DNA from: Propionibacterium freudenreichii subsp. freudenreichii
Lineage (GTDB): Bacteria > Actinomycetota > Actinomycetes > Propionibacteriales > Propionibacteriaceae
Direction of reading: 5' to 3'
Length of the DNA: 32,000 bases
NCBI RefSeq assembly: GCF_000940845.1
Contig: NZ_CP010341.1
Location: 2,070,001-2,102,000 of the forward strand
Each line of letters starts with the position of its first letter. Position 1 is the stretch's first letter. The position numbers were made by a program, and so were the translations under genes. Of this stretch, positions 768-14,345 are shown one piece after another. Under the pieces are notes generated by a model. That model was not told the DNA's origin, made no database searches, and saw only the letters and a list, made by a program, of their open reading frames with translations.

Positions 768-2445
<1,678 letters not shown>

Positions 2446-5709: not shown

Positions 5710-6390
5710 CTACGCGTGCGGGCGCTCGTCGGCGCGGGCGGCAAGCGCCTGCTGATAGGTGGGTTCGTGGGCCTTGATCACCCGGATCACCCGGGCGGTC
5801 ACGGGCATCAGCAGGTACTGCAGGGCCACCTTGTACACGAATCCGACCACCGTGTAGTTCGCCCACTGGCCCAGCGTGGTGAGGCCGATCACCGGCGCGG
5901 CGATGGTGCAGAACAGGATGGTGTCGATCAGCTCACCCAGCCCGGTCGAGCTGGCCAGGCGGGCATACAGGCCCTTCTCCTGGTGGCGCTTCTTGCCGAT
6001 CCACATGATGAGGGAGTTGACGCTCTGCCCTCCGGCGAAGCCGACCATGCCGGCCAGCACCACCTGCCAGACCGGACCCAGCGCCAGCTCGAGGGCCGAT
6101 TGCTTGGCATTGGAGTAGTCGTCTCCCAGCCCGGGCAGCACGATGATGATCCAGTAGATGCCGGCGCTCACCGCATTGACGATGAAGCCCATGATGATGG
6201 CCCGCCGCGCGGCCACCGGGCCGTAGATCTCGGTGATGGCGTCGCCCAGGATGTAGCTGAACGGGAAGATGAAGAAGGCGCCGTCGGTGATGATGGGGCC
6301 GAACTGCACGCCCTTCGATGCGCCGATGCCCGACAGCACGATCACCACGCACATGATGGCCAGCATGAAGGGGAAGATCGACGATCCCAT
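5710..6390 (-). CDS. yhhQ: VUT/YhhQ-family membrane transporter (queuosine-precursor transporter family)
   Basis: MGSSIFPFMLAIMCVVIVLSG...FIFPFSYILGDAITEIYG...LGELIDTILF, polytopic, 226 aa. The start could be further upstream (GTG near 6456). Confidence 0.8.
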   Translation of the reverse strand: MGSSIFPFMLAIMCVVIVLSGIGASKGVQFGPIITDGAFFIFPFSYILGDAITEIYGPVAARRAIIMGFIVNAVSAGIYWIIIVLPGLGDDYSNAKQSALELALGPVWQVVLAGMVGFAGGQSVNSLIMWIGKKRHQEKGLYARLASSTGLGELIDTILFCTIAAPVIGLTTLGQWANYTVVGFVYKVALQYLLMPVTARVIRVIKAHEPTYQQALAARADERPHA

Positions 6391-7972: not shown

Positions 7973-8060
7973 CCCCGCCTCAATGGCCCGGCGCCATCAT
8001 GGGTGGTGCGGGCGCCAAGCCCCCCGCCGGGTGCGCGGGGCCGTCCGGGGAGGAATGACG

Positions 8061-9581
<1,521 letters not shown>

Positions 9582-9597
9582 GGTGGCCCCGCGCCCG

Positions 9598-9631
9598 ATG
9601 TGCACCCTCGTATGGTGCACACGTGCATTTT
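9598..9631 (+). terminator. Hairpin (GTGCACC-N7-GGTGCAC) followed by GCATTTTCC after the oxidase stop
   Basis: Inverted repeat plus a short T-tract 17 nt after the stop codon. Confidence 0.45.
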
Positions 9632-10006
9632 CCCGGCGCCGGAGCCACCAATGACACCGGGATCACCGACAAATGTCGATCACGATCATTCAGGTACCCG
9701 GTTTTCTAAGCCATTTGTGAAATTTTGTTACCTTGCCCGATCAGTGACCTAACATCGGGTCCACAAGTGAAGATAGTCCGTTTGTGCTGATGGGGACTCC
9801 CCGTCGGCACCGCATCACACTGCCACCACCCCGAAGGCGCGTCCCAACACGGTGACGCCCCGTCGCAGCGCTCTATCAGAACCCGGTTCTGCTCATGGGT
9901 GGGGGGATTTATCTCCGCCCCCTCCTCCAGCCCTGCGACAGGCCCGGTCCCCTGAAGCGCCCTGAGTTTGTTGGAGACTCCTGACCTTGGAAACGAGGAT
10001 GGGGTT

Positions 10007-10351
10007 ATGCCGAAGGAACTGGCGAATGGGAAGCCGACGACGCGTCGCTACTCGGTCGAGGAGAAGGCCGCCGCGGTGCGGATGGTGAGGACGCTGCGCG
10101 CGGAGCTGGGCGTCACGCAGGGGACGGTGCAGCGGGTCGCGACGCAGCTCGGTTACGGGGTCGAGTCCGTGCGGATGTGGGTCAAGCAGGCCGACGTCGA
10201 CGACGGTGTCGTCCCCGGTGTGAGCTCGGCGGAGGAGCAGCGGGTGAAAGAGCTCGAGCAAGAGAATCGGGAGCTGCGCCGGGCCAACGAGGTGCTGAAA
10301 CGGGCGGCGTCTTTCTTCGGGGCGGAGCTCGACCGCCACTACCGGAAGTAG
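10007..10351 (+). CDS. IS3-family transposase OrfA (HTH / leucine-zipper part)
   Basis: MPKELANGKPTTRRYSVEEKAAAVRMV...ELEQENRELRRANEVLKRAASFF. GAGGA SD 7 nt upstream. Confidence 0.85.
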   Translation: MPKELANGKPTTRRYSVEEKAAAVRMVRTLRAELGVTQGTVQRVATQLGYGVESVRMWVKQADVDDGVVPGVSSAEEQRVKELEQENRELRRANEVLKRAASFFGAELDRHYRK

Positions 10352-11271
10352 TCGCGTTCATCGACGCGAACAAGGACGACGTCGTGGACGGTCGCCGGCT
10401 CGGAGTCGAGCTCATCTGCAGACTGTTGCAGGTGGCTCCGAGCAGCTACTACGCCGCCAAGACCCGTGCGCCCTCTGCCCGTGCGCTGCGTGACGAGGAA
10501 CTGATCCCGCAGCTGGTCGAGATCTGGGAGGCCAACTACCGCGTCTACGGGGTCCGCAAGCTCTGGAAGGCTGCCCGGCGTGGGGGCATCATGATCGGCC
10601 GCGACCAGACTGCGAGGCTGATGCGCGTCGCAGGGATCGAAGGTGCGAGGCGGTCGAAGCGGGTGAAGACCACGCGGCCGGACCCGGCGTCGTCGCGGCA
10701 CCCGGACCTGGTCAAGCGGGAGTTCACCGCGACGGCACCGAACCGGCTCTGGGTGACCGATCTGACATTCGTGCCCACCTGGGCTGGCGTCGCCTACGTC
10801 TGCTTCATCATCGACGCGTTCTCCCGGATGATCGTGGGGTGGCGGGTCGCGTCACATATGCGCACCGAGATGGTCCTCGACGCGATCGAGATGGCGCGCT
10901 GGTCCCGAGGCGCCCACCATGAGGATCTGCGGTGTCACAGCGACGCGGGCTGTCAATTCACATCGATTCGCTACGGCGAACGCCTCGCAGAGATCGGTGC
11001 GACACCCTCGATCGGGACCGTCGGCGATTCGTATGACAACGCCCTGGCCGAGACGGTGAACGGCTACTACAAGGCCGAGTTGGTTCGCGGGCCCACCCGC
11101 TCGGGACCGTGGAAGACGGTCGAGGATCTCGAGCTCGCGACGCTCGGCTGGGTGCACTGGCACAACACGCAGCGCCTCCACGGATACCTCGGAGACGTCC
11201 CACCCGCCGAGTTCGAGAACGCGTTCTATGCTGTCCCCAACGACAGCAATCTGCTGATCGGAATCAAATAG
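10342..11271 (+). CDS. IS3-family transposase OrfB (DDE/RNase-H-fold catalytic part), expected as an OrfAB fusion by programmed -1 frameshift
   Basis: The -1 frame is open from 10177. DDE residues in WVTDLTF, CHSDAGCQFTS and YDNALAETVNG. The exact slip site within about 10310-10351 is not identified (no A6G heptamer seen). Confidence 0.85.
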   Translation, partial: PEVVAFIDANKDDVVDGRRLGVELICRLLQVAPSSYYAAKTRAPSARALRDEELIPQLVEIWEANYRVYGVRKLWKAARRGGIMIGRDQTARLMRVAGIEGARRSKRVKTTRPDPASSRHPDLVKREFTATAPNRLWVTDLTFVPTWAGVAYVCFIIDAFSRMIVGWRVASHMRTEMVLDAIEMARWSRGAHHEDLRCHSDAGCQFTSIRYGERLAEIGATPSIGTVGDSYDNALAETVNGYYKAELVRGPTRSGPWKTVEDLELATLGWVHWHNTQRLHGYLGDVPPAEFENAFYAVPNDSNLLIGIK

Positions 11272-11320
11272 CGCGAGTCTCCATCAGACCCAGGGCGCTT
11301 CACCCATTTCGGAGGTAGCA

Positions 11321-11500
11321 ATGTACGAAAACGGAACGAATCCCACGGTTGCCACGGGGGCAATCTCAACGGTGGCGTTGAGCACCGGAACCTGGATCGG
11401 CATCGCGGTGGGCGTGGCTCTCCTGCTCGCCATCGCGGTGTTCATCGGCATCCAGGTGGGACGCCGCGCCGCACGCAAGGGCACTGGCGACCAGGCATGA
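11321..11500 (+). CDS. 59-aa single-pass membrane micro-protein (below the size seen in the ORF track)
   Basis: MYENGTNPTVATGAISTVALSTGTWIGIAVGVALLLAIAVFIGIQVGRRAARKGTGDQA. GGAGG SD 6 nt upstream. About 80% GC3. Its stop overlaps the synthase start (ATGA at 11497-11500). Confidence 0.6.
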   Translation: MYENGTNPTVATGAISTVALSTGTWIGIAVGVALLLAIAVFIGIQVGRRAARKGTGDQA

Positions 11501-13032
11501 CCAAGTCTCCCGCTCTCTACCGCGTGATCCTGCTCGTCTGGGCAGCCCTCTTCGGGCTGGCCCTGCTCACCACAGCCGGCTCCCTGAGCCGTGAGATCAC
11601 GCAACGGCCCGTTGCCGGGGTACTCGCCCTGGTCACCCTGCTGTTCATCGGATACTTCTGGCTGAACGGCATCAAGGACGTGCTCTACACCGCCTGGTAC
11701 TACCTAGTGATGCGCGGACGCATCCGCCCGGTACGACGCCGCGAACTGCACCGTCACCCACCGCGCGTGGTGATGGTGTACTGCACCCGCAATGACTTCA
11801 ACGCGAACTCGCTGGCCGCCAGCATGAAACAGCGGTACACAAACGTGCACACCGTCATCCTCGACGATTCCGACAAGCCCGAATACCTAACAATGATAGA
11901 TATCTTCGCGGCCACCCATGATGTGCAGGTGGTACGCCGTGAAAACCATGTCGGATTCAAGGCAGGAAACCTCAACAACTACCTTACGGGAGCCGACTAC
12001 GACTATTTCGTGATCCTCGACAGCGACGAGATCATCCCGCCGCGGTTCATCCGCCGCATGCTCGACTACTTCGCGTCCGACCAGTCGATCGGCATCGTGC
12101 AGGCCACCCACGTGGCCACGCGCAACGTCACCCGCTTCCAACAGAAGTTCTCGCTGGGGGTGGACTCGCACTGGCCGGTCTACCAGTCGGTGAAGAACCG
12201 CTACGGGTTCCTGTCGCTGCTCGGCCATGGCGCCATGGTGAGCAAGCAGGCCTTCGACGCCGCCGGGGGCTTCCCGCTGATGGTGGCCGAGGACCTGTGC
12301 TTCTCGCTGGCCGTGCGCGAGCACGGGTACACCACCGTGTTCGCACCCGACGTGACCTGCCAGGAGGAGTTCCCGGTGGACTACCTGGCGTTCCGCAAGC
12401 GCCACAGCAAGTGGACGCAGGGGAACATGGAGTTCATCCGCAAGAACACCCGTCCGATCATGACCTCACGCCAGCTGCACTGGTACGAGAAGCTCGACAT
12501 CGTGCTGTTCACCTATGCCCTGCCGCTGACCGCGGTGTTCTCGGTGTTCGTGGTGATCAACGTCGTCGTGCTGCCGATGATGCATGCCTCCTTCCAGTTC
12601 CCGCTGTGGATGCTGATCCCCACGGTGGCGTTCCTGGTGGCCCCCATGGTCAACGACGTGGTCTTCCACTGGGCGAGGATGGCCCACACGAAGCTGCTGA
12701 GCTACTCGGGCGGCTCGATGATGCTCTACGGGTCGATGTACTTCACCAGCCTGCGGTCGTCGCTGAAGTCGATGTTCGGCAACTCGGTGTTCCTGGTGAC
12801 GCCGAAGGACTCCACGGCGATCTCGTTCCGCGAGGCGTTGCGTTCCACCCGCAGTGAGCTCATCTTCGCCGGCGTGCTGGCGGTGATCTCGCTGGTGTTC
12901 ACCCGCTCGGTGTTCCCGGTGTTCCTGCTCGTGCTGCCGGCGATGGTGGCGCCCTATCTGATGGTGCGACACCAACCGACGCGCGCCGAGCTCCATGAGC
13001 GCCAGCGGGGCAAGGTGTTGCAGGCGGCCTGA
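11497..13032 (+). CDS. Processive family-2 glycosyltransferase / membrane-embedded polysaccharide (beta-glycan) synthase
   Basis: Two N-terminal TM helices, then a GT-A domain with ILDDSD, RRENHVGFKAGNLNNYL, ILDSDE (DxD), VAEDLCFS and FRKRHSKWTQGN (QxxRW-like), then C-terminal TM helices. Motif set resembles BcsA/CrdS/OpgH/Tts-type synthases. Confidence 0.88.
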   Translation: MTKSPALYRVILLVWAALFGLALLTTAGSLSREITQRPVAGVLALVTLLFIGYFWLNGIKDVLYTAWYYLVMRGRIRPVRRRELHRHPPRVVMVYCTRNDFNANSLAASMKQRYTNVHTVILDDSDKPEYLTMIDIFAATHDVQVVRRENHVGFKAGNLNNYLTGADYDYFVILDSDEIIPPRFIRRMLDYFASDQSIGIVQATHVATRNVTRFQQKFSLGVDSHWPVYQSVKNRYGFLSLLGHGAMVSKQAFDAAGGFPLMVAEDLCFSLAVREHGYTTVFAPDVTCQEEFPVDYLAFRKRHSKWTQGNMEFIRKNTRPIMTSRQLHWYEKLDIVLFTYALPLTAVFSVFVVINVVVLPMMHASFQFPLWMLIPTVAFLVAPMVNDVVFHWARMAHTKLLSYSGGSMMLYGSMYFTSLRSSLKSMFGNSVFLVTPKDSTAISFREALRSTRSELIFAGVLAVISLVFTRSVFPVFLLVLPAMVAPYLMVRHQPTRAELHERQRGKVLQAA

Positions 13033-13046
13033 GCGCCGCAGCGTCA

Positions 13047-13094
13047 CCAGTGGCCTGAAGGCCACGGGGTTGCCAGTGGCCTGAAGGCCACGAG
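13047..13094. repeat. Two 22-bp direct repeats (period 26 bp), each containing the hairpin GTGGCC-TGAA-GGCCAC
   Basis: CCAGTGGCCTGAAGGCCACGGG (13047-13068) and CCAGTGGCCTGAAGGCCACGAG (13073-13094). Confidence 0.85.
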
Positions 13095-13109
13095 GCTCCC
13101 CACAGAACA

Positions 13110-13143
13110 GTGAAGGCCCGGTGGATATCCACCGGGCCTTCAC
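13110..13143. terminator. Perfect 34-bp palindrome, probable bidirectional terminator between the synthase and tRNA-Pro
   Basis: GTGAAGGCCCGGTGGAT|ATCCACCGGGCCTTCAC. It generates mirror-image artefact ORFs on both strands in the track. Confidence 0.6.
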
Positions 13144-13148
13144 CATCT

Positions 13149-13223
<75 letters not shown>

Positions 13224-13373
13224 AAGCTGACAGTCATGCCCGACATGTCGGAGCACAGCTGCAAAGCCGTCGATCAGTCTAACCCAAAGGCCCCCCGCGC
13301 CACCAATTGCCCGCGCTGACCCGGGTTCCCCGTGTCGCCCGCAGCTGCCCCACGCAGGGCCTGCCGACGCGCG

Positions 13374-14345
13374 TCATTCCCGGGTGTCGCTGGCCACCAG
13401 GGTGAGCAGGGCCGCCTCCGGGCGGCAGAACAGCCGGTAGGGCGCATAGGGCGAGGTGCCCATGCCGGCCGACACGTACATCCAGGCGGCCGCCCCGTCA
13501 TGTTCCCAGCGGCTCAGCCCCTTGGCATGGCCCGGATCGATGTCGCAGTTGGTGACGATCGGCTGGCCGGTCGGCAGGCACACCTGGCCACCGTGCGTGT
13601 GCCCGGCCAGGATCAGCGGGAAGCCGTCGTCGACCATCGCATTGAGCACGCGCTGATAGGGGGCGTGCGTGACGCCCAGCGAGACGTCGGCCCCGGTGTC
13701 CAGGGGCCCGGCCACCGCGTCGTAGTGGTCACGCCCCACATGGGCGTCCCCGGTCCCACGCAGCTGCACGCGGCGACCGGCAACTGACAGGGTGGTGTCG
13801 ACGTCGTCGAGGTAGGTCCAGCCGTGCGAGGCCAGCTGGTCGCGCAACTCGCCGGTCGGCAGGGCCAGGGCGGGATCGTCGGCGTGGTGGCGTTGGTGCC
13901 GGCCGGTGGCACCGCGCCACAGATAGCCCAATGGATTGCGGAAGTGCGGCTTGACGAAGTCATTCGAGCCGAAGACGAACACCCCGGGCAGGCGCAGCAG
14001 CGGGCCGAGCGCGGCCATCATGGGGGCGATGGCGCTGGCTTCGGACACATGGTCACCGGTGCTCACCACGAGATCGGGCTCCAGGGCCGCGAGGCCGGCC
14101 AGGAAGCGCAGGGCATCGTCCTGGCGCGCCAGCAGGTGCAGGTCGGAGATGTGCAGCACGCGGATCGGCGCGCTGCCCGGCGCCAGGATCGGGATCCGAT
14201 GGCGGCGGATGAGGAAGGCATGTGCCTCCACCAGGCCGCCTGCCAGCATCGAGGCCCCGAACCCGAGCCCGGCACCCATCAGGGACTTCAGCGCCGATGT
14301 GTGGTGGGTCACGGCCGACCCGGTGGGTGATGGTTTCTGCGTCAT
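13374..14345 (-). CDS. Metallophosphoesterase (calcineurin-like), membrane-anchored
   Basis: Motifs HISDLH, STGDH, GSND, GHTHGG. ATGA overlap with the upstream PBP gene. Confidence 0.85.
   Translation of the reverse strand: MTQKPSPTGSAVTHHTSALKSLMGAGLGFGASMLAGGLVEAHAFLIRRHRIPILAPGSAPIRVLHISDLHLLARQDDALRFLAGLAALEPDLVVSTGDHVSEASAIAPMMAALGPLLRLPGVFVFGSNDFVKPHFRNPLGYLWRGATGRHQRHHADDPALALPTGELRDQLASHGWTYLDDVDTTLSVAGRRVQLRGTGDAHVGRDHYDAVAGPLDTGADVSLGVTHAPYQRVLNAMVDDGFPLILAGHTHGGQVCLPTGQPIVTNCDIDPGHAKGLSRWEHDGAAAWMYVSAGMGTSPYAPYRLFCRPEAALLTLVASDTRE

Follow-up and report, generated by a model that had tools for sequence, protein, structure and literature searches.

An IS3-family insertion sequence in front of the capsule gene gtf of Propionibacterium freudenreichii and the probable origin of gtf transcription in the element

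A 32,000-nucleotide (nt) stretch of Propionibacterium freudenreichii subsp. freudenreichii (NZ_CP010341.1, positions 2,070,001 to 2,102,000), here called the window and numbered from its first letter, carries an insertion sequence (IS) of the IS3 family directly in front of a small open reading frame (micro-ORF) and the polysaccharide synthase gene gtf (gtfF). We consider it likely that transcription derived from this IS drives the micro-ORF and gtf far above the level of a weak native promoter, leading to capsule formation. The locus is the IS-gtf capsule polymorphism previously described for P. freudenreichii, and the finding is not new. The organism is P. freudenreichii, and the gene is gtf/gtfF by exact protein identity. 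The presence or absence of the IS between strains was also found: 42 P. freudenreichii loci (window included) were retrieved via exact-protein look-ups, of which 28 were occupied and 14 were empty. An earlier note on this DNA had mentioned a gtf/IS case in P. freudenreichii and left open whether this locus was that case or a parallel one; the Gtf identity and the published record place it in the same organism and at the same locus.

The genome paper of strain CIRM-BIA1 described an IS upstream of gtf (PFREUD_19370) and one gtf copy in all strains (PMC2909200). Two sources report that the IS enhances gtf transcription and is associated with the capsule (PMC2909200, PMC12191393). According to a 2025 review, which covers Deutsch et al. 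2010, gtf was present in all 68 strains, of which 24 were agglutinating; the agglutinating strains showed 18-264-fold higher gtf mRNA and had two transposase genes upstream of gtf (PMC12191393). The link of the IS with high gtf mRNA and beta-glucan agglutination is taken from the literature. The gtf product is a (1->3,1->2)-beta-D-glucan capsule (PMC12191393, PMC5146858), and gtf alone suffices for polysaccharide synthesis (PMC12191393). The published gtf IS (Deutsch et al. 2008, 2010; Falentin et al. 2010) agrees with that of the window in species, gene and the two transposase ORFs directly upstream. Compared with the published CIRM-BIA1-type locus, the window has another Gtf allele, and its IS copy differs at one position of the right inverted repeat; nothing essential differs. 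The CIRM-BIA1-type Gtf allele (CBL57431.1, P0004) was found with the same IS at the identical site.

The IS3 element and its insertion site

The IS at 9953-11302 is complete. The earlier note had described an intact 1350-bp IS3 element with 25 of 28 matching positions in its inverted repeats (IRs) and a CCC target-site duplication (TSD), and the boundaries, the shuffled controls and the transposase profile confirmed it. The imperfect 28-nt IRs have the length (20-40 bp) and the 5'-TG...CA-3' ends of IS3 termini. They are complementary at 25 of 28 positions (TGAAG...CTTCA), and such a match was given by 0 of 100 shuffles. The TSD has the 3-4 bp of an IS3 element, CCC being present on both flanks of the IS and as a single CCC in the 14 empty loci. 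The two transposase ORFs show the IS3 arrangement, in which orfA has a helix-turn-helix (HTH) domain and the partly overlapping orfB, with its DDE/rve domain, lies in the -1 frame. The orfB product scored 315 bits against the NCBIfam profile transpos_IS3 (cutoff 160). The ALIL pseudoknot is a known -1 frameshift stimulator of IS3-family elements, and the match to it between orfA and orfB (RF01497) reached 51.9 bits (gathering score 50, E 1e-11). For the same element in other strains, a 421-amino-acid (aa) fused transposase was annotated by the depositors, and the exact orfA protein is recorded on 540 contigs, labelled as an IS3 family element of P. freudenreichii.

Among the IS elements of P. 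freudenreichii, ISPfr12 and ISPfr13 belong to the IS51 group and ISPfr11 to the IS3 group. The orfB product was also compared with an approximate orfB sequence of IS6110; 139 identities were counted over 255 aa (54%) and the termini were alike, which is a lead only and not a database result. This similarity and the ALIL match would point to the IS51 subgroup and the IS6110 relatives. A named IS6110/IS987 relative of orfB was sought by protein search, and the best 120 matches listed were closer actinobacterial copies named 'IS3 family transposase'. The same IS family, with 90-94% transposase identity, was seen in Micrococcus, Microbacterium, Kocuria, Brachybacterium, Agrococcus and others, and many of its matches lie on collapsed contigs of 1350 bp. 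The element has thus moved between genera of actinobacteria in recent times.

The right end of the IS lies 18 bp from the ATG of the micro-ORF at 11321, in front of its GGAGG Shine-Dalgarno (SD) sequence and on the same strand as the synthase, exactly as the earlier note had placed it. The note had also seen no hairpin between the orfB stop (11271) and this ATG. The scan of this interval found no terminator-like site, and the junction folded without significant structure (z -1.7 and -0.95). The AT-richer upstream region with the promoter-like TTGTTA-19-TAACAT, likewise mentioned there, was located in the native intergenic region (Table 1), where the GC content is 59%, compared with ~70% in the flanks.

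Other strains carry the empty site ...GGTCCCCATTTCGGAGG...., with no IS. The empty site ...CAGGCCCGGTCCCCATTTCGGAGGTAGCAATG was found in 4 complete genomes (L057, L059, L061 and L064; L numbers denote retrieved loci) and in 10 further loci. The 4 genomes read GGTC-CCC-ATTT, with a single CCC copy. The earlier note had rightly expected an empty site in related genomes, but its predicted sequence GGTCCCATTT did not hold, since the real site, ...CCCGGTCCCCATTTCGGAGGTAGCAATG with four Cs, has one C more. The empty loci correspond to the window sequence once the IS and a single CCC are taken out. From the multicopper oxidase gene to the micro-ORF, the intergenic region then measures 386 bp and consists of 9582-9952 plus 11306-11320.

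All 28 occupied loci have the IS at exactly the same site and facing the same way, on several flanking haplotypes. The 14 full IS copies at the gtf site are all 1350 bp long, with 5 of the 1350 positions variable. Some of the occupied downstream haplotypes are nearly identical to empty ones, for example L068 compared with L067. Judged by these sequences, the occupied loci go back to one old insertion that segregates as a species-level polymorphism and not to a strain-private recent event, and recombination probably moved the insertion between backgrounds. The TSD is intact, which was the ground for calling the insertion recent in the earlier note. A recent strain-private event does not fit its presence in 28 of 42 loci and the 5 variable positions.

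Two of the occupied loci showed further rearrangements. In L060 (2590-2633), the DNA to the left of the IS is unrelated to that of the window (...CACCTAT, then TGAAG, with no CCC), and the upstream genes are different. The unrelated left flank without CCC indicates recombination between IS copies in this locus. In L068 (1-1110), an ISL3 element is inserted at approximately window position 9606, within the hairpin after the oxidase gene. Events that involve an IS recur between the oxidase gene and gtf, and this intergenic stretch is a hot spot for them.

Origin of gtf transcription

An IS3-family element, possibly related to IS6110 and equipped with an ALIL-type signal, has inserted 8 nt upstream of the SD of the micro-ORF/gtf unit. 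It separates every possible native promoter, TTGTTA-19-TAACAT included, from the ribosome-binding site. Because 18 bp is too short for a promoter and a leader, and expression is raised, the mRNA with the micro-ORF SD should either begin within the IS or traverse it. Both this IS origin of the transcripts and the choice of promoter are inferred. Two sub-models may be considered. The first is read-through from the transposase promoter, which would be allowed by the lack of a terminator after orfB and appears geometrically sound. The second places an outward promoter within the final ~100-140 bp of the IS, as described for IS6110. Transcription leaving the right end of the IS would then cause high micro-ORF/gtf expression and the capsulated phenotype. 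The earlier note had proposed an IS-controlled switch of a surface-polysaccharide synthase; the published IS-gtf association supports such a switch, in the ON direction.

In IS6110, an outward promoter sits at the 3' end, and downstream genes on the same strand are up-regulated if the element lies no more than a few hundred bp from them (PMC4517164; PMC3701491). This element of the Mycobacterium tuberculosis complex resembles the IS of the window as an actinobacterial IS3-family element of similar length (~1355 bp compared with 1350 bp) with 3-4-bp duplications, and it acts as a mobile, orientation-dependent promoter, for example upstream of phoP and Rv1468c. It is another element in another host, and its outward promoter has been described, whereas the Propionibacterium IS has only a candidate hexamer. 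This candidate, the TATGCT of Table 1, aligned with TACGCT in the approximate IS6110 sequence, which again is a lead only. The distances also differ. The IS6110 insertions at phoP lie 75-196 bp upstream, whereas in Propionibacterium only 18 bp separate the IS from the start codon, so that it takes the place of the entire native promoter.

In elements of the IS911, IS2 and IS981 type, the right IR supplies an outward -35, which combines with a resident -10 and activates the neighbouring gene (PMC9330008). They belong to the same family and have the same outcome, but at gtf the spacing makes a hybrid promoter of this kind, spanning the IS end, unlikely. The best -35-like hexamer spanning the end, TTCACC (11299-11304), had no usable -10 at 16-18 nt, and the predicted start would fall at or past the ATG at 11321. 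When riboswitches or leaders in front of gtf were sought with Rfam, the only matches were tRNA-Pro, ALIL and a sub-threshold tfoR.

RNA sequencing (RNA-seq) of the capsulated strain CIRM-BIA138 gave normalised exponential-phase values of 39 for gtfF (PFCIRM138_06180) and 37 for the transposase with the adjacent number (PFCIRM138_06175) (PMC5146858 Table S1). In the stationary phase, gtfF was up 6.2-fold, the transposase 15.4-fold and the ALIL RNA 3-fold (PMC5146858). These counts are weak evidence for the co-transcription of the IS and gtf.

Several points weigh against an origin of gtf transcription in the IS. The co-induction in CIRM-BIA138 follows the replicate pattern of many stationary-phase genes, and the IS reads are multi-copy. 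TATGCT is the sole TANNNT hexamer in the last 200 bp of the IS, where approximately 1 per 220 nt is expected by chance. The scan of 9400-13400 for E. coli-type promoters gave no matches, but such a scan is uninformative in an actinobacterium with 67% GC. All occupied loci derive from one insertion event, so the co-orientation of the IS and gtf counts once. Lastly, the published link between the IS and gtf is a correlation across strains and not an isogenic test.

The IS might then be merely a linked marker, with other cis or trans polymorphisms causing the high gtf expression. The published evidence being a cross-strain correlation (PMC2909200, PMC12191393) is in keeping with this, as is the wording 'could be responsible' in the review (PMC12191393). 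The response of gtfF to the growth phase (PMC5146858) also implies that regulators exist. Still, an IS that cuts off all upstream native promoters and leaves 18 bp cannot be transcriptionally neutral. The IS state also occurs on several downstream haplotypes, some of them nearly identical to empty ones, which disfavours one nearby causal single-nucleotide polymorphism, and the loss-of-function lesions described below are concentrated in IS-bearing loci. We therefore regard a mere linkage of the IS as unlikely.

It is quite unlikely that the effect of the IS is to take away a negative cis element instead of supplying a promoter. Such an element could be the upstream anti-SD CCUCC (~9921-9928) or another structure or operator in the 5' untranslated region, and its separation from the GGAGG would lift a repression of translation and stabilise the mRNA. 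In the minimum-energy fold of the last 96 nt of the empty site, CCUCC does pair with the SD GGAGG. This fold accounts for 2.9% of the ensemble, its stability is below that of shuffles (z +1.4), and the 146-nt fold gave z +0.3. Sequestration of the SD at the empty site was rejected, as the folds are no better than shuffles. Removal of a cis element would also leave the transcript start of the separated gene unexplained, and the effect reported in the review is on the mRNA level (18-264-fold, PMC12191393).

A polar insertion that silences the micro-ORF/gtf unit, the alternative raised in the earlier note, is very improbable: the native promoter-like region is shifted 1.35 kb away and IS insertions in promoters often inactivate genes, but the literature contradicts silencing with the opposite report, an IS that raises gtf transcription and goes with the capsule (PMC2909200, PMC12191393), a transposase neighbours gtfF in the capsulated CIRM-BIA138, and gtf lesions in IS-bearing loci would be pointless were the gene already silent.

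Second-site lesions in IS-bearing loci

Seven distinct lesions expected to reduce Gtf were found (Table 1), all of them in IS-bearing loci and none in the 14 empty-site loci. The loci with a disrupted gtf are L058/L103, L060, L062, L107 and L094-L102. If the lesions were random, the probability that all seven would fall in the 28 IS-bearing loci among 42 is 0.044. The lesion sample is biased, as most loci were fetched with an intact Gtf as the query; in the loci anchored on the micro-ORF, which are the only fair set, lesions were present in 3 of 6 IS-bearing loci versus 0 of 4 empty loci. The confinement of lesions to IS-bearing loci would be expected if the IS makes the gene expressed and its expression is sometimes costly. 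It suggests that IS-driven expression is sometimes selected against.

We tentatively propose, at somewhat less than even confidence, that the locus is a two-step evolutionary toggle. In the first step, the IS would switch the micro-ORF/gtf unit on. In the second step, independent second-site lesions would switch the unit off where the capsule is costly. If this is true, the lesions would account for IS-bearing strains that do not agglutinate. In the literature searched, no reports of gtf pseudogenes were found, and the long-read genomes paper of Deptula 2017 makes no mention of gtf or the capsule.

The capsule masks the surface proteins behind the anti-inflammatory (IL-10-inducing) properties of the species and also affects biofilm formation (PMC12191393). 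The state of the locus is therefore a practical marker for the choice of cheese starters or probiotics, and this marker value is already in the literature. The IS being present together with an intact micro-ORF and gtf would be a better predictor of the phenotype than the presence of the IS alone. The residual value of the locus lies in the driving promoter, the second-site lesions and the conserved micro-protein.

Two of the rearrangements stand close to the IS. A 168-bp deletion, in which window positions 11304-11471 are missing (L094:1770-1790; also L095-L097), is flush with the right end of the IS. It removes the SD and almost all of the micro-ORF and leaves ~25 bp between the IS end and the start codon of gtf. 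Deletions of this kind are typical next to an IS. In L086, the ISL3 element separates the IS3 element from gtf; its transposase is encoded on the same strand, and two ISs are thus stacked here.

gtf, its micro-ORF and neighbouring features

The Gtf of the window agrees at every residue with database entries from P. freudenreichii, AJQ91551.1 and CEG90338.1 among them, and the cluster includes CBL57431.1 of CIRM-BIA1. A GT2 domain in a multi-pass membrane protein and homology to Tts place it among the processive GT2 beta-glucan synthases of the Tts/Gtf type. It shares 55% identity over residues 49-488 with a Streptococcus locus (L046). Tts of Streptococcus pneumoniae serotype 37 and Gtf of Pediococcus and Oenococcus are homologous single-gene GT2 membrane beta-glucan synthases. 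The Propionibacterium gtf differs from them in that it is preceded by a conserved micro-ORF and that its expression would be set by an IS polymorphism.

The Gtf scan of a species-level collection of 185,579 species genomes returned no P. freudenreichii locus, and the best match (68%) was in Saccharibacteria metagenome-assembled genomes (MAGs). The nearest Gtf relatives in this collection are in Saccharibacteria MAGs and Actinoplanes (47-68% identity) and not in Propionibacteriaceae. The GC content of gtf is 58-66%, compared with ~70% in the flanks, and a tRNA-Pro(CGG) adjoins the gene. The distant relatives, the lower GC content and the adjacent tRNA-Pro together suggest that gtf is a horizontally acquired cassette.

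The micro-ORF protein is on record on 203 P. freudenreichii contigs, where it is named hypothetical, and no Pfam or NCBIfam family matched it. Similar small ORFs abut the starts of Gtf homologues in Actinoplanes (L008, L011, L014, L018, L021) and in Saccharibacteria MAGs (L001-L003, L019). They share a design of M-Y-[D/E/G]-N, a stretch rich in Gly/Ala/Ser/Thr, one transmembrane (TM) helix and an Arg/Lys tail, in which Y2 and N4 are invariant. On the strength of this conservation, the micro-ORF is a real, conserved gene. Its 59-aa product may function together with synthases of this clade, as a partner subunit.

Table 1. Features of the IS-gtf region and second-site lesions (window positions unless a locus is named)
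Feature	Position	Strand	Locus	Remarks
Complete IS3-family insertion sequence	9953..11302	+	window	1350 bp; IRs, TSD, orfA/orfB, transposase profile
Left inverted repeat (IRL), starts TG	9953..9980	+	window	28 nt
Right inverted repeat (IRR), finishes CA	11275..11302	+	window	28 nt
Left TSD copy, CCC	9950..9952		window	compared with empty sites
Right TSD copy, CCC	11303..11305		window	compared with empty sites
orfA, 114 aa	10007..10351	+	window	Pfam HTH_Tnp_1
orfB, DDE/rve transposase domain, -1 frame relative to orfA	10342..11271	+	window	stop codon 11269-11271; Pfam rve, HTH_21, rve_3
ALIL pseudoknot, predicted -1 frameshift stimulator between orfA and orfB	10306..10440	+	window	Rfam RF01497
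TATGCT, TANNNT-type -10 candidate for an outward promoter in the IS 3' end, speculative	11227..11232	+	window	read from sequence
Native intergenic region, multicopper oxidase gene to insertion point	9582..9952	+	window	terminator-like hairpin 9599-9621; promoter-like TTGTTA-19-TAACAT 9725-9755
GGAGG Shine-Dalgarno of micro-ORF	11311..11315	+	window	8 nt from IS end
59-aa micro-protein, predicted single-pass membrane	11321..11500	+	window	MYxN N-terminus, TM helix, basic tail; overlaps gtf start (11497) by ATGA
gtf/gtfF, 511-aa GT2 polysaccharide synthase, intact	11497..13032	+	window	Pfam Glyco_trans_2_3, Glyco_tranf_2_3, Glycos_transf_2
Strong hairpin cluster 3' of gtf	13050..13143	+	window	folding; two tandem palindromic copies of GTGGCCTGAAGGCCAC, perfect 15-bp stem 13110-13143
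tRNA-Pro(CGG)	13149..13223	-	window	convergent with gtf
Micro-ORF homologue	5821-5997		L001	
Micro-ORF homologue	5829-5999		L002	
Micro-ORF homologue	1746-1913		L008	
Micro-ORF homologue	5837-6001		L018	
Micro-ORF homologue	5837-6001		L021	
Lesion: +AG	window 11543		L058/L103	frameshift in gtf
Lesion: W15* (TGG -> TAG, codon 15)	window 11540		L060	nonsense in gtf
Lesion: 1-bp deletion	window 11617		L062	frameshift in gtf
Lesion: +T	window 11831		L107	frameshift in gtf
Lesion: ISL3 inside gtf	8-bp duplication of 12237-12244		L094-L097	plus 168-bp micro-ORF deletion
Lesion: ISL3 inside micro-ORF	L086:1505-2943 (window 11439-11448)		L086	LT599498.1
Lesion: GGAGG -> GGATGG, micro-ORF SD	window 11311-11315		L071:128-146	

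Downstream of gtf, the fold of 13033-13150 had an energy of -77.2 kcal/mol (z -8.0), and 0 of 200 shuffles were equally stable. According to this folding, the hairpin cluster is probably the end of the gtf transcription unit, and it could be a terminator or a repetitive extragenic palindromic (REP)-like repeat. The cluster abuts the 3' end of tRNA-Pro, and its sequence is variable among strains at 13058-13109.

On the upstream side, the multicopper oxidase gene (7983-9581) contains a Met/Gly-rich insert, …QGMGGMGGMGGMHGSGMGGMNGSSGSMMG…, as in copper-resistance oxidases, and is followed by the hairpin in the intergenic region. On the downstream side, the metallophosphoesterase gene (13374-14345, minus strand) was called at 323, 305 or 301 aa depending on the strain, which points to a start-site or frameshift polymorphism.

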